The notes under the pieces were generated by a model that was given only the letters and a program-made list of their open reading frames with translations, searched no databases and had not been told where the DNA came from. The position numbers and the translations under genes are program-made. Shown here in pieces: positions 1 through 8,887 of a stretch of 8,887 nt of DNA; within the stretch, counting starts at the first letter, position 1, and every line of letters starts with the position of its first letter. The stretch spans positions 1 to 8,887 of IMG/VR virus record IMGVR_UViG_2778261251_000018; one strand, 5' to 3'. Origin of the DNA: a virus (Duplodnaviria > Heunggongvirae > Uroviricota > Caudoviricetes).

Positions 1-46
1 GAAAGCGTGCGTATTGCCTGAAAACACAACCCGCTACGGGGGAGAC

Positions 47-292
47 TTACCCGAAATCTGATTTATTCAACAAAGCCATGGTGAGGTTGAGAAAGAACTC
101 TGCGGGATCAACCTGCGTATATTTCCCGTAAAAAATTCGTAGGGCTATCCACGCAGCAGACAGAATCGCCAGGTAAGCAGTTAGTGAGATAAAAAAACGA
201 TAGCGGCCTGTTTTTTGAAAAAACATCAACCGCAGTGCCAGCATCAGACAGATAATTGCATTGGCATTGATGAGGACAGAGTGCAGGGTCAT
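47..292 (-). CDS. Small two-TM membrane protein, holin-like (putative lysis-cassette gene), 81 aa
   Basis: ORF-track ORF. ATG at 292-290 shares one nt with the upstream gene's TAA stop (TAATG). AAGGGG Shine-Dalgarno ~8 nt upstream. Two hydrophobic segments (res ~6-25 and ~33-54) and a short polar tail. Second gene after the putative Q/late promoter. Holin assignment is inferred from position and topology, not from recognised sequence identity. Confidence 0.45.
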   Translation of the reverse strand: MTLHSVLINANAIICLMLALRLMFFQKTGRYRFFISLTAYLAILSAAWIALRIFYGKYTQVDPAEFFLNLTMALLNKSDFG

Positions 293-675
293 TATTTCAT
301 CCCCTTATCTGATTTCCATAAACGAGCTTGTGACATGATCCGCAACAGTGATGTAACGCTGATTACTGATGCAACCAGTGCACCAATGGCGGGAGAGACT
401 TTTACTGTTACGGGAGGGTTCAGGTGACTCAGCACCGCATTCAGAATACCGGTAATGATGGCTGATGCTGTCTCAGCGCAATACACACCGCCAACAAACG
501 AAATGAGTGCGAAAATAACCTGCTTCCAGAATCGATGCTGCCCGGATGACAACACATAGAGAGCTGCGCCTGCCAGCGCACAGATCATCACTGCAGGTGT
601 TGCCTCAGGAAATAACGCAGCAAACGTCACCCCCGCCGAGCCAGCAGCAACGCCAGCGGTTAGAGGTTCAGACAT
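292..675 (-). CDS. Multi-TM membrane protein, putative holin or lysis-associated protein, 127 aa; first gene of the late operon
   Basis: ORF-track ORF. ATG at 675-673 with AGGAAA ~7 nt upstream. Three to four hydrophobic helices followed by a basic C-terminus (RIMSQARLWKSDKGMK), typical of holins. Lies immediately downstream of the pR'/tR'-like region. Confidence 0.5.
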   Translation of the reverse strand: MSEPLTAGVAAGSAGVTFAALFPEATPAVMICALAGAALYVLSSGQHRFWKQVIFALISFVGGVYCAETASAIITGILNAVLSHLNPPVTVKVSPAIGALVASVISVTSLLRIMSQARLWKSDKGMK

Positions 676-692
676 GATTTTTCCTGATTCAG

Positions 693-719
693 AAACGACA
701 AAACCCCGCCGTGGCGAGG
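693..719 (-). terminator. tR'-like intrinsic terminator between putative Q and the late genes
   Basis: Minus-strand RNA 5'-CCUCGCC-ACGG-CGGGG followed by UUUUGUCGUUUCU. GC-rich 6-bp stem with one mismatch (704-709 with 714-719), 4-nt loop, U-rich tail from plus 693-703. Confidence 0.45.
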
Positions 720-786
720 TTCTTAGAAATTTGGCAACATACCAAATTAGCGTTAAATATGGCCTATTTTGTTCGGTTTTGCAAGC

Positions 787-792
787 ATTATA
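787..792 (-). promoter_or_regulatory. Consensus -10 hexamer TATAAT, putative pR'-like late promoter
   Basis: Minus strand reads cgtttgcgTATAATgcttgc, overlapping the stop codon of the putative Q gene and ~70 nt upstream of the terminator at 693-719. No good -35 found (GAACCA at 17-bp spacing). Confidence 0.3.
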
Positions 793-1459
793 CGCAAACG
801 TCGTCTAAATGGTTCTGATAATGATGCAAAGTTGCAAAAAGTGCCACTTCATCAAGTGCTCTCACCGCCTCTTTCATTCCTACCCAGTGCGGGGAGTATG
901 TTTCGCACCAGGTGGAACGAGAAACAGACAACATTCCAGCTAGCGCAGATCCGGCCATCTCCTTAAAATCCTCGCGTTTATTTGCTGCTGCGACCGCCTG
1001 CACGGACAACCACACCAACGAAAGCAGGCGCTTGACTACTTTTCTCTGAGTTGACGCAGAGATGTTTCCTTTATAGCGACTCCAGACAGCCTCACAAATA
1101 GCTGTTTGGTGTTTGAACGCCAGGTTACCACCGTAGCAATAGCGCAACCACGCCTGCTGGCTAACGTCGAGCGCGTTCACGGCACGGCGCCACGATGAAT
1201 CAGCGAATTCAAAATCATTCATCGGCGGCGCGGGGCGACGTCTGCTGAAACTTTCCAGGGCATAAACTGGCGGAACCAGAGCATCAACGGTCCGGTCCTC
1301 CAGTTGCACACGATGAATATGTTTGCGTGGGTATGCGTTTTTATCTGCTGGCGGGTGCTCACACAATGCTTCCAGTTGCCCCTTAGAACCACCAGACAAA
1401 TCCCGTAATGCAGCACGCAGTTTTATGCGGGTATATTCCAATAAATACTCGTTACTCAT
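788..1459 (-). CDS. Putative late-gene antitermination protein Q, 223 aa
   Basis: ORF-track ORF. GAGGAG Shine-Dalgarno 8 nt before the ATG. Start overlaps the stop of the upstream DUF1364 gene (TGATG). Position is canonical for lambdoid Q: last gene of the nin-type operon, directly followed by a -10/terminator pair and lysis-like genes. The assignment is positional; I did not recognise a Q zinc-finger motif by eye. Confidence 0.5.
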   Translation of the reverse strand: MSNEYLLEYTRIKLRAALRDLSGGSKGQLEALCEHPPADKNAYPRKHIHRVQLEDRTVDALVPPVYALESFSRRRPAPPMNDFEFADSSWRRAVNALDVSQQAWLRYCYGGNLAFKHQTAICEAVWSRYKGNISASTQRKVVKRLLSLVWLSVQAVAAANKREDFKEMAGSALAGMLSVSRSTWCETYSPHWVGMKEAVRALDEVALFATLHHYQNHLDDVCV

Positions 1460-1752
1460 CAGATAAACTCCTCATCGCGCCAGATAGCCAGTGTTCTGAA
1501 AACTCCTTCAGCGTGCATCAACAACAATGAGTCGTGCTCGTAATCCGTTTTTGTACGCCCGTCGATGGCATCGTGACACGCACTGCAGGCGATAGCGCCC
1601 TGCATATCGTGAGGTTTGATGGCTGTGCCGCACGTTCCGGCGAGGCGGTAGTGAGCCAGTACACTGGTTTCCGGATTGTGATTACACACACCGGGGATAC
1701 GCACAGTACAAGCGCGACCGCATGCAGCTTTTCTCAGGTCGATTTTTTTCAT
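1459..1752 (-). CDS. DUF1364 family (YbcO-like) nin-region protein, Cys/His-rich putative nuclease, 97 aa
   Basis: ORF-track ORF. Cys/His pattern (C11, C15, C23, C41, C56, C59, H60) and ~95-aa length match the DUF1364/YbcO family of lambdoid nin regions as I remember it. 4-nt ATGA overlap with the upstream gene. Confidence 0.75.
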   Translation of the reverse strand: MKKIDLRKAACGRACTVRIPGVCNHNPETSVLAHYRLAGTCGTAIKPHDMQGAIACSACHDAIDGRTKTDYEHDSLLLMHAEGVFRTLAIWRDEEFI

Positions 1753-2345
1753 GATGTGTAATCCAGCAGCTGCGCGGCAGCATTTTCAGCGGCCTCCTGA
1801 GAGGCAAACGTGCGGAACAAAATATAATTCCACAGCACATCTAAAACGGCTGAATACAGTTGACCGAACTCAAGATCGTCCATCGCAGCAAACGAGATTG
1901 AACGAGGTACGCGCATCAAACTGCCATCCGGCATCTGATGAACGTCATAAAACCCAGCTTCCATAATCGCCCAGGCGCGAAACGCCTCGAACGACTTCAC
2001 CGCACTGATATTCCCCGCGCGCTTTTCCGACTCATCGAGAAGATACTGATCAGCCAGCTCTGCCATGACATCACCGTGTCCACCGTAATACGCCAGTAAC
2101 TTAACGTAGCCATGGACCAGTTCGCGCTCCGCAGGAGAAATAGCCCCTCCGGACGGATGCCAGTAATCAAAGCCCAGGTTTAGAAGTGAGAAAAATTTAC
2201 GATGAAACGCGGGATTACGCGCCTGTTTGAAATCTGCATACACAACAGCATCTGGTTTGACTCGTTCAGTCAACCAGCGTTGCGTGTCTGGTGTCGCGGG
2301 TATTAGCGAACCGCCGGATACCCTGATAAATGAATGCTGCGCCAT
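1749..2345 (-). CDS. nin-region phage protein, DUF1367-like, 198 aa
   Basis: ORF-track ORF. GGAG Shine-Dalgarno 8 nt upstream of the ATG at 2345. Translationally coupled to the DUF1364 gene. The DUF1367 label comes from remembered co-occurrence with DUF1364 in enterobacterial prophages and needs an HMM check. Confidence 0.6.
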   Translation of the reverse strand: MAQHSFIRVSGGSLIPATPDTQRWLTERVKPDAVVYADFKQARNPAFHRKFFSLLNLGFDYWHPSGGAISPAERELVHGYVKLLAYYGGHGDVMAELADQYLLDESEKRAGNISAVKSFEAFRAWAIMEAGFYDVHQMPDGSLMRVPRSISFAAMDDLEFGQLYSAVLDVLWNYILFRTFASQEAAENAAAQLLDYTS

Positions 2346-2374
2346 GTTTAACTCCAGGTGGCGCGGCAGTGCTC

Positions 2375-2406
2375 AGAAAATGGTGCCGGGTGTTCAGACC
2401 AGCACC
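2375..2406 (-). terminator. Intrinsic terminator between the small SOS-box gene and the DUF1367-DUF1364-Q operon (nin-region tR2-like)
   Basis: Minus-strand RNA GGUGCUGG-UCUGAACAC-CCGGCACC followed by AUUUUCU. 8-bp stem (7 Watson-Crick plus 1 G-U), 9-nt loop. The hairpin is better on the minus strand than the plus strand (G-U versus C-A). Confidence 0.45.
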
Positions 2407-2422
2407 AGTATTATACCGCGTA

Positions 2423-2602
2423 TTACGCGTCAGGGGGTGTAATAGTATATCCAGCTGTTTCTGCCAACTCGAGAAACGCCAGCAGGCTGGCAATCCGCTC
2501 GTCGTCGCTGAGGACGCGTACAATCACTACGCGCCCCTCTTCTCGTTTGATTACAGCCCGGCACGTATCCGGTAATTTGCTGATCGCCTCGTGTGTGTTC
2601 AT
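2423..2602 (-). CDS. Small hypothetical protein, 59 aa (MNTHEAISKLPDTCRAVIKREEGRVVIVRVLSDDERIASLLAFLELAETAGYTITPPDA), candidate SOS-induced regulator
   Basis: Not in the ORF track (below 60 aa); translated by hand. ATG at 2602-2600, TAA at 2425-2423. GGGGGA Shine-Dalgarno 5-10 nt upstream. Sits between a LexA-box promoter and a terminator, forming a self-contained transcription unit. Confidence 0.5.
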   Translation of the reverse strand: MNTHEAISKLPDTCRAVIKREEGRVVIVRVLSDDERIASLLAFLELAETAGYTITPPDA

Positions 2603-2620
2603 ATTTCCCCCTGACAGAAA

Positions 2621-2640
2621 CCCTGTATATATATACAGTA
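2621..2640. promoter_or_regulatory. LexA (SOS) box, perfect match to the CTGT-N8-ACAG consensus
   Basis: ccCTGTATATATATACAGta; core at 2623-2638 is CTGT + (AT)4 + ACAG, matching the E. coli LexA consensus TACTGTATATATATACAGTA. Overlaps the -10 of the minus-strand promoter. Confidence 0.75.
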
Positions 2641-2658
2641 TTTTTTATCGTATGTCAT
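2630..2658 (-). promoter_or_regulatory. Sigma70-like promoter for the 59-aa gene, with the -10 inside the LexA box
   Basis: Minus strand: -35 ATGACA (plus 2653-2658), 17-bp spacer, -10 TATATA (plus 2630-2635). Predicted start ~20 nt upstream of the ATG at 2602. Confidence 0.45.
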
Positions 2659-2715
2659 AACATCAAATGCAATGGGGGAATAATGAGCAATTATATTCAC
2701 CGCGTGAATTTGATT

Positions 2716-2746
2716 AAACGGTTTATTCCCGGAAAAAACGGTTTAT
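2716..2746. repeat. Tandem direct repeat of AAACGGTTTAT, two copies 20 bp apart
   Basis: Copies at 2716-2726 and 2736-2746. Each copy is internally near-palindromic (AAAC-G-GTTT). Located ~60-90 bp upstream of the LexA-box promoter and just past the stop of the 210-aa gene. Confidence 0.4.
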
Positions 2747-2751
2747 GGTTA

Positions 2752-3384
2752 TTATTTTTCATTTCCATAAACATGGGTTAACCATTTTCTAATAGTTGAC
2801 TCCGCCGGAACGTCAGCATATTTTTTTACGAGAATTTCGTTAATACGTGCCACCGCCGCACTAACCCGTGCGTGGGGATTATTTGTGAAAAAAACCTCTG
2901 CAATCTGTAATGCCTCGTCTTTTAGCCTGTGCTGTGGCCTCCCTCCGCCCTTTGTTCCCAGATAACGCGCCAGTTGTTTGAACCGGTACGCCACGATTAG
3001 TGGCCGCATCATCATATTGAAAAAATCACGTGCATCGTCGTCCTCTCCTCGCGCTATCAACAGCGCAAAAAACAGGTACGGTATTGTATATACGTCAGGG
3101 GAAATCATTACGCGCCTGCACACAGTCGGCGCCAGTGCGATCAGTGTGTCTGCCAGCGCGTCGCTCTCTCCTCCACGTTTGTAATACCGGTAGAGTGGTC
3201 CTAAGTCGAGTTCACTGGTATTGAATCCAGTCACAGCCTCACGAACCTCGTCTGCCAGCGCGTTGTAAATCGCCCCTGTACGTTTTGTGTAGAGTCTCCG
3301 GGTTGCCCCCCGGTTATCCAGCGCCCGCAGCATGTCAAGTCGGGTGACAAACGTTTCAGGCCAGTCCTCATAGAATGATCTCAT
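2752..3384 (-). CDS. Hypothetical protein, 210 aa; unknown-function accessory (moron-like) gene
   Basis: ORF-track ORF 2752..3420, trimmed to the ATG at 3384 (MRSFYEDWPE...), which has a GAGGTG Shine-Dalgarno ~7 nt upstream. The 12 extra N-terminal codons have no ribosome-binding site. No family recognised. Confidence 0.7.
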   Translation of the reverse strand: MRSFYEDWPETFVTRLDMLRALDNRGATRRLYTKRTGAIYNALADEVREAVTGFNTSELDLGPLYRYYKRGGESDALADTLIALAPTVCRRVMISPDVYTIPYLFFALLIARGEDDDARDFFNMMMRPLIVAYRFKQLARYLGTKGGGRPQHRLKDEALQIAEVFFTNNPHARVSAAVARINEILVKKYADVPAESTIRKWLTHVYGNEK

Positions 3385-3625
3385 ATCCACCTCGAATAAT
3401 AAAAACAGCACTATTTGCACAATTTATTATTCGTTGTCGCATCGCAGAGTTCTATAAAAAGAAAACCCGCCGAGTCAGGGTTTTGTTATGACTCGTGAAA
3501 CAACCATCCAAGTTTTTAGACTGAACGGTGATACTTGCAAATATTTGAAAATATGGGCTGGGCCCCTATCTTATGATGTGCCTGGTAATTTATATTGTTG
3601 GGTCTTTATATCATGAGGAATCACT

Positions 3626-3859
3626 ATGGGTACGTTAGGCAACCAGCCGTGCAGAAGTCGTTATGAGTTCGATGATTTTAATTTAGCCAATCGGGCTGAG
3701 GCTCTTACTAAGTTAGCAAAAGAAACTGATGTATCGGTAGATACTTTAATCAAACTTGAAATTGCTATGCAACTGAATCGGCTCAACTCCATCCTTATCG
3801 AAAACGGTGACAAGATGGATGAGAACCTGGCAGGTATTGGCGAGATACTGCAGAAGTGA
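3626..3859 (+). CDS. Hypothetical small protein, 77 aa; only convincing plus-strand gene
   Basis: ORF-track ORF. GAGGAA Shine-Dalgarno 7 nt upstream. Followed 5 nt after the stop by a GC-rich hairpin. Divergent from the 210-aa gene across a 240-bp AT-rich intergenic region. Confidence 0.6.
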   Translation: MGTLGNQPCRSRYEFDDFNLANRAEALTKLAKETDVSVDTLIKLEIAMQLNRLNSILIENGDKMDENLAGIGEILQK

Positions 3860-3863
3860 GAAT

Positions 3864-3883
3864 AGCCCCTCTTTTGAGGGGCT
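3864..3883 (+). terminator. Stem-loop terminator candidate after the 77-aa gene
   Basis: AGCCCCTC-tttt-GAGGGGCT: perfect 8-bp GC-rich stem with a 4-nt loop. The downstream U-tract is weak (gcaccTTTaaT) and a second hairpin (GCACCTT-taat-AAGGTGC, 3881-3898) abuts it. Confidence 0.4.
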
Positions 3884-3996
3884 GCACCTTTAATAAGGTG
3901 CGATATTCTTCACGTTTCACCGTCACCTGGGTGCTCAGTACCGTTGAAAACGGTATTCAGAAACTGGTAATCATGTCAATCACCTGGAAAGGCAAG

Positions 3997-4033
3997 CCCC
4001 GCGAGATGGTGAGGCTACCGGAGCATCGCGGGG
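3997..4033 (-). terminator. Hairpin just past the stop of the 226-aa membrane-protein gene
   Basis: CCCCGCGA ... TCGCGGGG: 8-bp GC-rich arms with a 21-nt loop, starting 4 nt after the stop at 4037. The following sequence is only moderately U-rich, so the call is weak. Confidence 0.3.
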
Positions 4034-4036
4034 ATA

Positions 4037-4717
4037 CTATTCGGCACTTGTGTTAGGTTGCTGAGCGTTCTCGTTTTTGTCTTTATTAAATTGAATGTTT
4101 GGCTGTTGGAATAACGATCCCTGCAGATTTTTAAACGCTCCATCCACAATGTCGTCTCTGGATTTTTGTGGCAATGCCCAAGTACAAATACCATAGACAA
4201 TGACAGCGAAGGTTATTGTGGCGAAAATGCTGGCAAACCCATTCCAGTACCATCCTAACGAGCGGGAAACACGCCCACGTTTGCGTGCCTGGGTGATTTC
4301 AACCATGCGATGAAAATTGAGAATAGCATCCTCTCCAGCCTTCCTTAGCTCGCTCTCACGTGATGCTTTCATAGCCTGTATTTCTGCTTTCAGCCGTTCT
4401 ATTTCAACATCCTGCAAGTTAGCACCGGCTAACTGTGCATCGTACTCAAGCCGGATATCAGCATCTATCTGGTCTGTTAAGTTTGTGACGATGGCTTCTG
4501 CTTTTTCTTTGTAAGACTCAATTCGGCCTGGCGAGTTAACTGTCTGCTCATGAAAGATCTTCAGTTGGGCGTTAATATCTTCTTCTGTATATTCGCCACT
4601 ACTACGCAACTTCTCTGCATATTCATTTTTGTCGTGCTTATAGAGCGCGTAAGCCAAAAAGCCAGATGTGTCATCTTTCCCTGTAACTAATTGAGTAAAA
4701 ACCCAGAGCTTTTCCAT
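4037..4717 (-). CDS. Coiled-coil protein with a single C-terminal transmembrane helix, 226 aa; candidate membrane-anchored exclusion or abortive-infection effector
   Basis: ORF-track ORF 4037..4765, trimmed to the ATG at 4717 (MEKLWVFTQL...). The upstream 16 codons start at TTG and run through the terminator hairpin. Predicted helical heptad-like region (res ~75-130), hydrophobic stretch LGWYWNGFASIFATITFAVIVYGICTWAL (res ~155-182), Q/N-rich tail. No family recognised. Confidence 0.7.
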   Translation of the reverse strand: MEKLWVFTQLVTGKDDTSGFLAYALYKHDKNEYAEKLRSSGEYTEEDINAQLKIFHEQTVNSPGRIESYKEKAEAIVTNLTDQIDADIRLEYDAQLAGANLQDVEIERLKAEIQAMKASRESELRKAGEDAILNFHRMVEITQARKRGRVSRSLGWYWNGFASIFATITFAVIVYGICTWALPQKSRDDIVDGAFKNLQGSLFQQPNIQFNKDKNENAQQPNTSAE

Positions 4718-4730
4718 TTGGTTTTTCCGC

Positions 4731-4758
4731 AATAAAAAAGCGCCAGAAAAAGGCGCTT
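4731..4758 (-). terminator. Strong rho-independent terminator between the 64-aa gene and the 226-aa gene
   Basis: Minus-strand RNA AAGCGCC-UUUUUCU-GGCGCUU followed by UUUUAUU. 7-bp stem (4738-4744 with 4752-4758), 7-nt loop. Begins ~19 nt after the stop of the 64-aa gene and ends 14 nt before the ATG of the 226-aa gene. Confidence 0.7.
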
Positions 4759-4776
4759 TAATCAATTAAAGTAAAA

Positions 4777-4971
4777 TTATCCTTTGGCTACAACTGTCCT
4801 GAATGCACGATCCATCATTACTCGCGCAGTATCTCGTGATCTCTGTATTGAAGCAGAGCCAGAGGACATTGAAGCAGTAGGCTTAGCAGGGGCTCTATTT
4901 TGTGCTAATGCACTGCGAGCAATGTCAGCCTTACGGCTATCTGACAGTGGTCGAAGTTCATATTTAGCCAT
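4777..4971 (-). CDS. Small basic Ser/Ala/Arg-rich hypothetical protein, 64 aa
   Basis: ORF-track ORF. Near-ideal GGAGGA Shine-Dalgarno ending 4 nt before the ATG (GGAGGATAAATG). Canonical terminator just downstream. Preferred over the antisense ORF 4784..5152, which starts at TTG. Confidence 0.6.
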   Translation of the reverse strand: MAKYELRPLSDSRKADIARSALAQNRAPAKPTASMSSGSASIQRSRDTARVMMDRAFRTVVAKG

Positions 4972-4994
4972 TTATCCTCCCCATATATCCGGCG

Positions 4995-5034
4995 ATTATC
5001 CACAATCCAACACTGTTGACTATTCTGTGGATAG
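4995..5034 (-). promoter_or_regulatory. Promoter of the 64-aa gene flanked by inverted DnaA-box-like 9-mers (candidate operator)
   Basis: Minus strand: -35 TAGTCA (plus 5017-5022), 16-bp spacer, -10 GATAAT (plus 4995-5000). TTATCCACA at 4996-5004 matches the DnaA-box consensus TTATNCACA; its inverted partner TGTGGATAG at 5026-5034 is the complement of CTATCCACA. The perfect 8-bp arms are 21 bp apart. Confidence 0.3.
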
Positions 5035-5329
5035 TTTACCACAGACACCGTTAAATGCCATGTGCAGAATTGTCAAGCACTTAAACGACGAAAATCACTA
5101 TATGCAGGTTATTTTATTTCAGCTACCACTAGATGTAGTAAGTAGTCGCTAAAAATAAATAATGTTTGATAATGAAGTCGGTTTAAGAGCAGCTGGTCTG
5201 CGTTAGATGCAGGTACTCAGCTGGCTGCTTGCGCAGGATCGCCTCTGCGATAACAGGCATGCTCAGGCATTCTTTGCAAGCCACATCTGGATACCCCTTA
5301 TCAGACGATACGTAATATCCATCCAGCAT

Positions 5330-5878
5330 TCAAGGGTGCCACATACTCCCGCGAGTAAGAGTCAAACAGGATAGTAGTACATTGCTGGCATGTGAAAAAT
5401 TAGCTTCCTGGTCTTCGAGGTTGTAAGACCATTTTTCTCCATGGAAAAGATTATGCCGTAACCTAAAAATCACTTTGAACACAAAGCTGATTTTATCTTC
5501 AATTGTTGGAGACTGTATCTGAAGTAGCGTAACAAAGCGTTCTCTGATTGCATTCTTAACATACTCAGGCGGGGCCAGTTTATTGAAGCGGTAATCGCTA
5601 TCAGGGCTGTCTCGATAGCGTCGTATAAAATAACGATAGCAATCATCTATGGTCTGACTGTCCATGCCGTTATGCACAACCAGTTCCTGTGCCAGTGCGT
5701 CAGTTCTACCAAGGCCAGCAGCCATTGATGTTAACTTTGATTCAGCCAGGGAAAAATAAATCATAAAGCGACATAAGTTATCATATTGATTCTGATGAAA
5801 TGGTTGTGCTTGTAACAGATCTGCCAATTCGGCGACTACTGGGCGTGGGGCGTCTTCTACGATACTCACTTCCGACAT
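5330..5878 (-). CDS. Hypothetical protein with a C-terminal R-x4-H motif (HEPN-like, putative RNase), 182 aa
   Basis: ORF-track ORF. AAGGGAG Shine-Dalgarno ~6 nt upstream. Motif FRLRHNLFHGEKW (res ~139-151) contains R-H-N-L-F-H, matching the HEPN R-x(4-6)-H signature with a polar residue after the Arg. The fold is not verified. Confidence 0.6.
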   Translation of the reverse strand: MSEVSIVEDAPRPVVAELADLLQAQPFHQNQYDNLCRFMIYFSLAESKLTSMAAGLGRTDALAQELVVHNGMDSQTIDDCYRYFIRRYRDSPDSDYRFNKLAPPEYVKNAIRERFVTLLQIQSPTIEDKISFVFKVIFRLRHNLFHGEKWSYNLEDQEANFSHASNVLLSCLTLTRGSMWHP

Positions 5879-6357
5879 AAAAACTCCCTTATGTTATGGA
5901 GAGGGTGAAAATAACTGTATCTGTCAGGAGATTCTTTCTCGGTTGGTCATTGAGCGCGCTCCTATAAAGCATATGTTATACCCAATATTACAAAAACCAG
6001 GTACATATGCTTGTTCTATTTAACCTGCGTCCTCTGCAAGATAATGCGACACTATCAGCAAACGTTACTGTTGTACATGAGCGGTACTTAAACTGAGGTA
6101 TTCGGCCTCGTGTTGGTCGTGACCAAATACCTTTTTAAACGCAAGTAACTCTCTCTATGAAACAGACTTTAGTCGATTTTCGAACACCTTAGTCGCAGGG
6201 TCTTGATAAATTAACAATGTATTGAAAACATATAATTATCCCATCAACTCCAACGTAATACATCACAAAAAAATCTATTTTTTGTTCTAACGTCAATACG
6301 TGTTCTAAAAACAATATTTCACTAAGAATGAGAGGATTCAGAGTACATTAAAATGAT

Positions 6358-6388
6358 GGGTTGTTTATTCAATTCTTATAAACAACCC
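6358..6388 (-). terminator. Hairpin terminator after the DUF262 gene
   Basis: Perfect inverted repeat GGGTTGTTTAT-(9 nt)-ATAAACAACCC, starting 12 nt past the stop at 6400 and followed on the minus strand by AUCAUUUUAAU. Confidence 0.5.
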
Positions 6389-6399
6389 ACTTTCGTCAT

Positions 6400-7458
6400 T
6401 TAATCATGTAAAGAGCAAAATTCTTTCAAAATATCAAATCTACGCTGTCTGTTATGACTCTTCTTTGAACCCTCTTGGCTGAGGAATCTATATTCCTCAA
6501 CCAGTGGATGGGGGTTATCTTGTTCATTTAACTCATAAATATTAAAAAAATCCTCGAGCTTTGAACTAATAACATTCATATCAACAAGCTTAGATTTACT
6601 AAGCTGTAAATAATAGTATGCCAGCACAAATATAAAATACAAATGGCCTTTTTTCTTTACAACTGATTCTAATACTTGTTTATTGTTGATAATTTGAGAT
6701 ATGATCCTTAACACTTCGTTAAAGATAATTCTGTCCTCAGTCGCCTCAGGGTAATTCTCATTGTATTGATCATACACTCGATTAATTGATTTTTGTGTAT
6801 TATCCTGCTCAATACCCATTCGTAAGAAAATCAATAATGTGCTGATGAATTGAATGTCTTGCATCCGACGGATATCTGACTGAGTAAATATCTTATAATT
6901 ATCCCAAAATTCATTTTGTGCAATTTCTTCGGCTAATCTTAAAAACTCGCCATTAAATTCAGCATTACGAAGTTCTTGAGGATTTAACGTAGTATTTGTT
7001 CTATTTAGACGTAAAAATAACTTTGCAATCTCATCATATCTCAATGATTCATTAATAAATCTGGATGAGAATTGGTATCGCCAAAAATCACGTTTGTTAT
7101 CTGCCGACAATTCTGAAAAAATTTTCCCACTATAGTCGGCTTCTTTATCATCTATAGCTGCTTTGCTTAACTTAAACTCATCATTTAAATATCGCTGGAT
7201 TGTGGTTAGCCTTTGCTGTCCATCTACAATTGAATATTTAGTATCTCCAGTGTCAGGATCAGTATTATTTGCCCAAAGGTAAATCTCAGGGATTGGGTAG
7301 CCAATTAATATTGTCTCAATTAAGGCCACTTGGTCTTTTTGCTGCCAGATATATTTTCTCTGATATGAATTATCAACTGTAATAACACCTGATTTCAAAT
7401 TATCCGTCAACCATTTAATGTCTTTCGATTCAACTTTAATTAGATCAATAGCTCTCAT
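6400..7458 (-). CDS. DUF262 (ParB/Srx-fold, GmrS-like N-terminal NTPase domain) protein, 352 aa, without a recognisable DUF1524/HNH nuclease module
   Basis: ORF-track ORF. DUF262 hallmark motifs read directly: YQRKYIW (res 32-38) and DGQQR (res 79-83, nt 7210-7224). AGGA Shine-Dalgarno 9 nt upstream. ATG overlaps the NTase stop (ATGA). The C-terminal ~200 aa is low-complexity K/N/Y-rich, with no His-Me finger seen by eye. Confidence 0.85.
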   Translation of the reverse strand: MRAIDLIKVESKDIKWLTDNLKSGVITVDNSYQRKYIWQQKDQVALIETILIGYPIPEIYLWANNTDPDTGDTKYSIVDGQQRLTTIQRYLNDEFKLSKAAIDDKEADYSGKIFSELSADNKRDFWRYQFSSRFINESLRYDEIAKLFLRLNRTNTTLNPQELRNAEFNGEFLRLAEEIAQNEFWDNYKIFTQSDIRRMQDIQFISTLLIFLRMGIEQDNTQKSINRVYDQYNENYPEATEDRIIFNEVLRIISQIINNKQVLESVVKKKGHLYFIFVLAYYYLQLSKSKLVDMNVISSKLEDFFNIYELNEQDNPHPLVEEYRFLSQEGSKKSHNRQRRFDILKEFCSLHD

Positions 7459-8045
7459 ATCAATTGTCCTTGTAACTTATCTTTTAGACTATTCAACCCA
7501 GCTATGTGATAGCGTTCAACGGACTCCCAAGAGTCATAAATTCTGTAGTTGATGTCGTTAGGTATTCCAAAAATAGTTTGAATGTCTTTTTTTAATGGTT
7601 CAACGTTACGGGACCATTTATTAAAAAAATCGACTCTAATATCTAACTCCTTCAATGACACGAATCCTTTGAAAATATTTTTAGCTACAGGAGCATATAC
7701 AGGCAAATAATTCTTTGATTGTAATTCAATAAATGCCATCCAGGAAGATTTATAAATTCTGTCGGATACTAAAACCAAGTCTATATCTGACTCATCGTTA
7801 AATGTTCGATAATTTTTATCAGGGCTCAAGCTGAATCCCATCTTAGCACTTCCAACAATTGCAATATTATTTACATGAATTTCAAGCTTCTTAGACATAT
7901 ATAGCTTAAACTCATCATAATCTTTAGCAAAGGTTATTGATTTTTTTTGTTCCCGAAAATACCAAATGTCATGTCCTAAAAGGTATCGTTGGTAGACATC
8001 GCGGATATCGTCGGATAGTAGCTTTTCCTTAAATTCATTTAACAT
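7455..8045 (-). CDS. Minimal nucleotidyltransferase (Pol-beta superfamily, MNT/SMODS-like), ~196 aa
   Basis: ORF-track ORF 7455..8069 starts at TTG; the first ATG is at 8045 (MLNEFKEKLL...). Neither start has a strong ribosome-binding site. NTase signature read directly: IVGSAKMG (GS motif, nt ~7848-7856), then NDESDIDLVLV (acidic D-x-D pair, nt 7779-7787), then LDIRVD as a likely third acidic residue. Confidence 0.8.
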   Translation of the reverse strand: MLNEFKEKLLSDDIRDVYQRYLLGHDIWYFREQKKSITFAKDYDEFKLYMSKKLEIHVNNIAIVGSAKMGFSLSPDKNYRTFNDESDIDLVLVSDRIYKSSWMAFIELQSKNYLPVYAPVAKNIFKGFVSLKELDIRVDFFNKWSRNVEPLKKDIQTIFGIPNDINYRIYDSWESVERYHIAGLNSLKDKLQGQLI

Positions 8046-8096
8046 TTTCTTGTGCGCCCCTATTGACAAGAACTGTAGATTAGCTGTTACATTTCC

Positions 8097-8125
8097 ATAG
8101 TATGTTTTTATTGCGTCATTAACAA
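8097..8125 (-). promoter_or_regulatory. Candidate sigma70 promoter for the NTase-DUF262 operon
   Basis: Minus strand: -35 TTGTTA (plus 8120-8125), 17-bp spacer, -10 TACTAT (plus 8097-8102), ~50 nt upstream of the ATG at 8045. Only 4 of 6 matches in each hexamer. Confidence 0.25.
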
Positions 8126-8887
8126 GTAATTAAATGCTTTCACCAGATTTAATTTCGCTGATACACTTGTTTTTTTCATGGTTATGACTGATTTTTTAGT
8201 TCATCGCAGTCATTGCGGAGCACCCTGCTAATGAGGTATCACTACATTTAATGCTGGCAATCATTAATAAATAATTTTTCATGTTATTTTACTTGGTCGT
8301 TAACGTGATATCGGCCTCAGAACAATCACCAATAGACAATATATCTCATGCCGTTAATGGTCAAATCACAGCCCCCCTTCAGTAAGCTAATAGATGTCTG
8401 CTTACTGCCAGATAAAGTCATTGTTCTTATAGACAGGTAATAATCCCACATCGAAATTAAATATCTTCCTTTTACATTAGAAATAATTCCTCCAGGACAC
8501 TATCCATTGCCGGGCACAATCACTCGGGGTATAACGATATAAAATATGTTCATGATAGTGCAGGTTCGTATATTAAGTTCAGCAGCGAAAACATGCCTTA
8601 CAGGTTTCCAGTTTTGGGAGCGTCGTTACAGGATCCTGTGCATACCGTTCCCATCTGTTGAATTAAAGGTTTCACAGCCTTTGCCGATATCACCTTTTAC
8701 CTTGCCTGTGATGCGTTCAGTGCTCAGCGCTGAGAGATCCCCTCATAATTTCCCCAAAGCGTAACCATGTGTGAATAAATTTTGAGCTAGTAGGGTTGCA
8801 GCCACGAGTAAGTCTTCCCTTGTTATTGTGTAGCCAGAATGCCGCAAAACTTCCATGCCTAAGCGAACTGTTGAGAGTACGTTTCGA

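Follow-up and report, generated by a model that had tools for sequence, protein, structure and literature searches.

The DUF262 domain provides the sensor and nucleoside triphosphatase (NTPase) of the defence systems GmrSD, BrxU, SspE and Menshen (PMC12065111, PMC10952713). In Menshen (NsnABC), the NsnA protein joins a ParB-DUF262 domain to a helical ParBDB C-terminal domain and carries the motifs QRxxxW, DGxQR and FxxxN (PMC12065111); NsnB, an ABC ATPase (AAA_15 plus DUF3696), is encoded immediately downstream of NsnA, and NsnC, the effector, carries an inPIN and a nuclease domain. The type IV restriction enzymes GmrSD, BrxU and SspE, which are about 560-590 amino acids (aa) long, end in a DUF1524 His-Me finger (HNH) nuclease domain. 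PD-T4-2, in which a DUF262 protein is partnered by a HEPN (RiboL-PSP) protein, and the MNT-HEPN toxin-antitoxin pairs are two-gene cassettes found in prophage hotspots. Here we describe an 8,887-nucleotide stretch of an Escherichia coli lambdoid prophage (IMG/VR record IMGVR_UViG_2778261251_000018, positions 1 to 8,887; hereafter the window), in which an AT-rich block, or islet, encodes a DUF262 protein together with a small nucleotidyltransferase (NTase)-like protein. With a probability of roughly 0.7, we regard this block as an exchangeable two-gene cargo cassette, presumably anti-phage in function, that occupies a recombination-bounded hotspot of lambdoid prophages.

The larger gene (6400..7458, minus strand) encodes a 352-aa NsnA-like DUF262 protein, with a ParB/Srx-fold NTPase region, a helical C-terminal domain and no nuclease domain. 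It matched GmrSD_N/DUF262 in Pfam (1e-24) and, essentially over its full length (residues 9-348), NsnA in PADLOC (4.3e-41), which was also the best match for all 37 family members tested. Its QRxxxW, DGQQR and FxxxN motifs are complete and do not vary within the family, and neither do the individual residues D79, G80, Q81, Q82 and R83. The protein thus has the architecture of Menshen NsnA, but its surroundings differ: where NsnB would be expected there are a hairpin, a boundary repeat and a 182-aa backbone gene, and neither NsnB nor NsnC is encoded in the window or behind the pair in 59 loci that have both genes, where no third gene is conserved downstream either. Instead, the small NTase-like gene lies upstream and overlaps the DUF262 gene by 4 bp (ATGA, combining the small-gene stop and the DUF262 start). 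With the GmrSD family the 352-aa protein shares the DUF262 N-terminal domain and its DGQQR nucleotide-binding motif, but it is shorter, has no DUF1524 domain and belongs to a two-gene system with an NTase-like partner. PD-T4-2_A matched it at 2.5e-19, more weakly than NsnA.

The small gene (7455..8045, minus strand) encodes a protein of 196 aa from an ATG at 8045, a start backed by homolog alignments and by RefSeq annotation; the reading frame is also open from a TTG at 8069 (204 aa), and some members of its database cluster have 204 aa. The 196-aa protein had no matches in Pfam, NCBIfam or PADLOC, its 52 relatives had no consistent PADLOC match, and neither HEPN nor PD-T4-2_B was matched by it or by the relatives (Pfam, PADLOC). 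The Pol-beta signature hG[GS]...[DE]h[DE]h, set on a beta-strand/helix/beta-strand core, can be recognized in it: IVGS (residues 63-66) lies at a strand end and helix start and is followed by SDIDLVLV (86-93) on the next strand, residues G65, S86, D87 and D89 are invariant in 52 sequences, and the strand-helix-strand core is modelled with a confidence score (pLDDT) of 95. A profile of the family found no matches among PDB sequences, and comparison of the model with the PDB by Foldseek gave nothing significant, the closest solved folds being the MNT nucleotidyltransferases HI0073, 8xeh MNT and 1wot. We accept the protein as a putative, divergent Pol-beta-type NTase, the fold evidence being modest. 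Its closest folds recall the MNT-HEPN pairs, but the partner here is a DUF262 protein rather than HEPN, so that the pair combines one component from each of PD-T4-2 and MNT-HEPN. To judge by its domain content, with no NsnB or NsnC, no DUF1524 and no HEPN, it matches no complete known defence system. No description of a DUF262 plus nucleotidyltransferase pair was found in the literature; the supplementary tables of Rousset et al. list uncharacterised 'hypothetical + DUF262' arrangements in P2/P4 hotspots, which could not be linked to this pair by accession.

The association of the two genes is widespread. When one genome per species was scanned, 50 of the 55 full-length matches to the small protein had a same-strand DUF262 gene immediately downstream, and the matches came from Proteobacteria, Bacteroidota, Bacillota, Actinomycetota, Acidobacteriota, Deinococcota and others. 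The small gene stood immediately upstream of the DUF262 gene in every context that was pulled, namely (i) E. coli lambdoid and P2-like prophages, Enterobacter P2-like remnants and a Photobacterium lambdoid prophage, and (ii) Variovorax, Ferruginibacter, Bacillus and Pseudomonas. With the Enterobacter copy, nucleotide similarity (77%) does not extend outside 6413-8073, the two coding sequences. The pair lies between gpA and the portal gene gpQ in E. coli P2-like prophages, a locus that is an experimentally validated defence hotspot (Rousset et al., PMC9122126), and in Ferruginibacter it adjoins TIR genes.

Some of these loci carry additional genes. In 15 loci and in Bacillus the NTase-like gene is preceded, at a distance of 2-25 bp and on the same strand, by a C5 DNA methyltransferase gene. 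This three-gene variant occurs mostly in Bacillota, as well as in Synergistes and Victivallaceae (L039, L044-L047, L049-L052, L054, L055, L057, L058 and L068, in each case just upstream of about 6001 or the equivalent position; also L021/L022 6787-7983); Proteobacteria and Bacteroidota have versions that lack the methyltransferase. The Photobacterium iliopiscarium lambdoid prophage (L023 8001-11917) has the pair, at 69-73% aa identity, in the analogous place, after the replication genes and before lysis, and a KAP-family NTPase gene follows it there. In Variovorax (L018 8582-9832) the DUF262 partner has 416 aa, with an extra DUF3606 region, and the pair adjoins an integrase fragment and an NYN-domain gene.

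A sliding scan of the whole window in 300-nt windows gave a guanine-plus-cytosine (GC) content of 0.30-0.37 across about 6001-8550, compared with 0.45-0.55 across 1-3450 and 0.39-0.49 across 3451-6000. By segment, GC was 0.326 in the islet (6147-8365) and 0.496 in the backbone (1-3450). The DUF262 gene (GC 0.325; GC at third codon positions, GC3, 0.295) and the NTase-like gene (0.327 and 0.315) were much alike, and the backbone genes had a GC3 of 0.47-0.58. As a background we used 400 windows of 2219 bp from a sister prophage in which the site is empty (strain JNE151685, locus L002): their mean GC was 0.496 (standard deviation 0.034, minimum 0.417), placing the islet at z = -4.99, and none of the 400 had a GC of 0.34 or below. 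The fall in GC that a first-pass annotation had placed at 5880-8480 from hand counts is therefore real, and the sliding scan that it proposed shows the discontinuity, but its left edge has to be moved. The sharp fall begins near 6100-6150 and ends near 8500; the DNA at 5879-6057 (GC 0.391) is intergenic backbone outside the islet, identical or near-identical in the empty site of L002 and in the related locus L004. The annotation's account of the contents, a two-gene operon with about 900 bp of non-coding flank, was accurate: 7455-8045 and 6400-7458, both on the minus strand, are the only supported open reading frames (ORFs) in 5880-8480, and the non-coding remainder (5880-6399 plus 8046-8480) amounts to about 950 bp, with the caveat that the left flank includes a boundary repeat in which a gene relic survives and that the right flank belongs, from 8366, to an LprI module. 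There is also an intermediate step (3451-5878, GC 0.435) with hypothetical genes, those of 226/242 aa, 64 aa and 182 aa on the minus strand and a 77-aa one, which matches phrog_5550 (1.5e-53), on the plus strand.

Comparison with related prophages, which had also been proposed, showed that the islet is polymorphic rather than common to all of them. The two genes are carried by only 3 of 5426 complete E. coli genomes, all of them pig isolates, in copies that are 99.8-99.9% identical. The immediate left flank (5000-6057) occurs in eight complete E. coli genomes, of which three have the islet, one is empty and four have other cargo; the empty site is that of L002, a near-identical prophage with nothing at this position. 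The alternative cargo in the four genomes (L004 type) comprises a 450-aa protein, an SMEK-domain protein and a methyltransferase, and is unrelated to the islet. The wider prophage family, in more than 400 genomes, is largely of the L003 type and has ImmA/IrrE, LprI and ORF6N genes as cargo. The presence of islet, empty and other-cargo states at one backbone site identifies a cargo hotspot, in agreement with the suggestion that a cargo module sits in a variable part of the prophage. That variable part extends past the AT-rich block, as L003, an ST131-type prophage, diverges from the window at 3930. Further, the insert relative to the empty site measures about 3.75 kb and consists of the AT-rich pair plus an LprI module (GC 0.448) that continues past the right end of the window; the AT-rich block accounts for only some of the insert. 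In these respects the islet is ordinary, textbook mosaic prophage cargo, and its composition anomaly alone is ordinary too.

The junctions of the insert are marked by a direct repeat of about 250-280 bp, as the first-pass annotation had anticipated in proposing a search for flanking repeats. Copy A lies at 6058..6338, and copy B is located past the LprI gene and hence outside the window: positions 6058-6302 recur about 3.75 kb to the right at 80.7% identity (L001 19043-19291; L006rc 12355-12603). Copy B overlaps the 3' end of an 85-aa gene (WP_033814620) past the LprI-family gene, and the repeat consists of the 3' end of this gene and the spacer downstream of it. Copy A retains a relic of the 3' part of a homolog of this gene (6241..6345, minus strand), truncated at its 5' end by the cargo, that matches residues 41-76 of the 85-aa protein with 56% identity (tblastn, E 1e-7). 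The repeat is present in 450 of the 5426 E. coli genomes, in a median of two copies and only on chromosomes, and further full or partial copies stand at cargo borders in L003 (11215-11476 and 14631-14720) and L004 (14016-14107). Neither terminal inverted repeats nor a short target duplication could be found around 6147-8365, where only chance-level matches occurred, and no integrase or transposase of its own flanks the module. We accordingly rejected a transposon- or integrase-borne islet; long, diverged homologous repeats lacking such marks point to cassette exchange by homologous recombination, and the boundary repeat appears to serve as the recombination handle. Cassettes would thus enter and leave through recombination between the two repeat copies, with no transposition or site-specific integration. 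The repeat has a nearly invariant core (about 6107-6138) for which a hairpin is predicted; a consensus RNA structure of five copies had no compensatory pairs and hence no covariation support.

This arrangement resembles the P2 gpA-gpQ hotspot and the mosaicism of the lambdoid nin region, in which a fixed backbone site likewise holds alternative AT-rich cargos among near-identical prophages. The present hotspot differs in its position, between the 85-aa and 182-aa genes of a lambdoid prophage, and in being bounded by a specific repeat that is duplicated at the cargo borders. No account of this hotspot or repeat was found in the searchable literature. As a phenomenon this is ordinary, with modest novelty in the cargo and in the boundary repeat, but the comparison does define a lambdoid-prophage cargo hotspot with its own repeat, found, usually twice, in 450 of the 5426 genomes.

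The pair is probably a prophage-borne anti-phage module, acting in superinfection exclusion, although we hold this with less assurance than its status as exchangeable cargo. Its place in the P2 hotspot, its TIR, KAP NTPase and C5 methyltransferase neighbours, the role of DUF262 in known systems and the intact catalytic motifs of both proteins speak for this. In such a module the DUF262/ParB-fold protein would bind incoming DNA and check it, probably for its state of modification, as in GmrSD, BrxU and SspE, and the NTase partner would be an effector or regulator that executes or gates the response by nucleotidyl transfer. Sensing of modification is proposed from the analogy with those three systems and from the methylase-linked variant; this division of labour between a DUF262 sensor and an NTase effector is a tentative suggestion, with the odds well against it. 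Similarly doubtful is the idea that the pair constitutes a widespread, unnamed two-component anti-phage system, in which a Pol-beta NTase stands where GmrSD, PD-T4-2 and Menshen have a nuclease, HEPN or ABC-ATPase effector. If that were true, a ParB-fold NTPase would sense DNA and the outcome would be nucleotidyl transfer in place of cleavage, and the Bacillota version with a C5 methylase would be a restriction-modification-like system with a non-nuclease restriction arm. As a conserved, multi-phylum two-gene module with an optional methylase, found in the validated P2 defence hotspot, the pair is well-motivated candidate defence cargo and a cheap choice for experiment.

Several observations weigh against the reading of the block as an exchangeable anti-phage cassette. 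No toxic or nuclease effector domain is recognisable in either protein, the spacing between GS and DxD in the small protein is about 20 residues rather than the classic 9-13, and the small protein was absent from 50,697 sequenced phage records searched with tblastn. With respect to expression, a promoter scan of 5800-8887 returned eight sigma-70-like sites where shuffled sequences led us to expect 13.2; the operon has a plausible terminator and no convincing sigma-70 promoter for autonomous expression in a lysogen. With respect to exchange, the empty site contains a private 35-nt patch (equivalent to 6139-6172) that is unlike either repeat copy, and a simple A x B deletion within exactly this sequence would not have produced it. 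Finally, the direction of the event, gain here or loss in the empty strain, cannot be polarised from the repeats, since both would leave the same chimera.

This last point bears on the strongest alternative, to which we give a substantial minority chance: that this prophage sub-lineage inherited the islet from its ancestor and that the empty-site strain lost it by recombination between the repeats, the polymorphism being a deletion. In a three-way alignment the empty site is A-like (identical) on the left and identical to B on the right, with the switch at about 6114-6174, which is exactly the product of an A x B crossover, and direct repeats 3.75 kb apart favour deletion. A double crossover that delivered a cassette would yield the same chimera, however, and the private patch does not fit either copy. 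Moreover, only three of the eight closest prophages have the islet and four hold unrelated cargo, suggesting that replacement is frequent in both directions.

The composition of the block had been taken by the first-pass annotation as foreign and as fitting recent horizontal acquisition, and here the wider family led us to a different conclusion. In 57 of 57 species-level loci the two-gene module had a lower GC than its flanks (mean difference -0.112; sign test, p about 1e-17), and module GC tracked flank, and hence host, GC with a slope of 0.59 (r 0.86). The same deficit was seen in nine of nine hand-picked contexts (-0.065 to -0.22), both in a low-GC host such as Bacillus (module 0.275, host 0.445) and in a high-GC host such as Variovorax (0.44 and 0.66), and the Enterobacter and P2-borne E. 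coli versions have a GC of about 0.32-0.34, as does the islet. The other cargos of the hotspot are likewise AT-rich, with GC minima of 0.338 and 0.310. AT-richness is therefore an intrinsic, lasting property of the module family, and of the cargo of this hotspot generally, and offers no evidence of recent arrival or of a foreign, low-GC donor; the tracking of host GC implies that the module has resided long in its hosts and has not ameliorated fully. The family-wide shift would fit the established AT bias of mobile and defence genes, which in enterobacteria are typically targets of H-NS.

Transfer from a low-GC donor such as Vibrionaceae, recent enough that the block had not yet ameliorated to E. 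coli, is accordingly unlikely. In its favour are the rarity of the islet in E. coli and the near-identity of its three copies, the presence of Vibrio and Photobacterium among the nearest relatives outside E. coli (69-76% aa identity), and the close copies in other genera, with Pectobacterium in the cluster at 90% identity or more and Enterobacter and Pseudomonas at 86-87% aa identity. Rarity, copy identity and these close copies do hint at recency, and they alone do so; a deficit that is universal across hosts argues against the use of composition as a clock. The family thus provides a quantified counter-example to the equation of low GC with recent transfer, being AT-shifted in every host yet tracking the host's own GC.

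MNT-type NTases act as antitoxins in MNT-HEPN pairs, and AbiEii/MenT proteins are NTase toxins. It might be supposed, therefore, that the two genes form a toxin-antitoxin or addiction pair, or a ParB-like module for the stable maintenance of the prophage rather than for defence against phages. The ParB fold of DUF262, the tight 4-bp overlap and the small size of the module are consistent with this, and partition systems have been noted in P2 hotspots (Rousset et al., PMC9122126). Conversely, the pair has neither a ParA nor a HEPN partner, it is often chromosomal and outside mobile elements, in defence-island-like contexts or adjoining a DNA methylase, and all DUF262 proteins characterised so far, ParB aside, are defence sensors. 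We consider this alternative about as improbable as a recent low-GC donor, bearing in mind that toxin-antitoxin action and abortive-infection defence are not mutually exclusive. That the block is decaying, non-functional DNA or an artefact of composition is very improbable indeed: insertion sequence (IS) elements do gather around it (IS10 in the window; IS3 in H1-H3), but both ORFs are uninterrupted in more than 100 contigs, where their copies are identical or nearly so, the catalytic motifs are invariant across phyla, both proteins give high-confidence predicted folds and the composition was confirmed numerically, so that conservation effectively refutes it.

The putative expression signals of the cassette lie on either side of the two genes. 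Ten nucleotides past the DUF262 stop codon there is a stem-loop (6357..6389, minus strand; inverted repeat I9) with a perfect 12-bp stem and a 9-nt loop, followed by UCAUUUUAAU; its RNA fold has an energy of -16.4 kcal/mol (z -2.65), making it a plausible terminator of the operon. A consensus terminator scan of 5800-8887 returned none, and would have passed over this hairpin because its loop exceeds 8 nt. Upstream of the small gene, the AT-rich DNA at 8046..8365 (GC 0.344) is specific to the module, with no similarity outside the islet-bearing lineage, and is presumed to be the promoter region, although its sigma-70-like matches are all weak.

The window as a whole corresponds to the replication-to-Q (lysis) region of the prophage, and includes genes for the Q antiterminator, YbcO/DUF1364, DUF1367 and a holin, which are all encoded on the minus strand. 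In full-length relatives terminase, portal and capsid genes lie to the left, and DnaB-type helicase, YdaS/YdaT and repressor genes to the right. The hotspot falls in the nin-like stretch that separates the replication genes from the Q antiterminator. Immediately to its left, and transcriptionally downstream, is the hypothetical 182-aa backbone gene (5330..5878, minus strand; GC 0.432), which is annotated in L001, L002 and L004 and is 98.5% identical to its counterpart in the empty-site prophage. To the right, 8366..8729 (GC 0.42) is the upstream region of LprI and belongs to a separate cargo module, being 91.6% identical to the DNA directly upstream of LprI in L003 (13212-13578). The LprI start would fall at about 8802, and LprI is the next gene in L006, a locus free of IS elements. 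An Rfam scan of the whole window at gathering thresholds gave no matches.

The right end of the window is an IS10/ISVsa5 insertion (8721..8887), comprising a 9-bp target, TGCTCAGCG, at 8721-8729 and an IS end that runs from 8730 to the end of the window (158 bases) and is 100% identical to ISVsa5 in more than 1000 plasmid records. The target fits NGCTNAGCN, the established target consensus of IS10. As IS-free versions of the same prophage exist (L006), the IS10 at 8730 represents a separate, later insertion; its end lies about 72 bp upstream of the would-be LprI start codon. In L007 and L009 the same 9-bp site holds an IS10 that shows the opposite end, suggesting either (i) an IS10-mediated inversion or (ii) independent hits at a hotspot target. 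IS3-family and ISVsa5 insertions were found in or around the hotspot in all three complete islet-bearing genomes (L005 16975-18203; L001 17540-18753; L005 6014-7222). An IS3 separates the 182-aa gene from the DUF262 gene and an ISVsa5 interrupts the terminase gene, and the islet-bearing prophages of the complete genomes are therefore probably defective.

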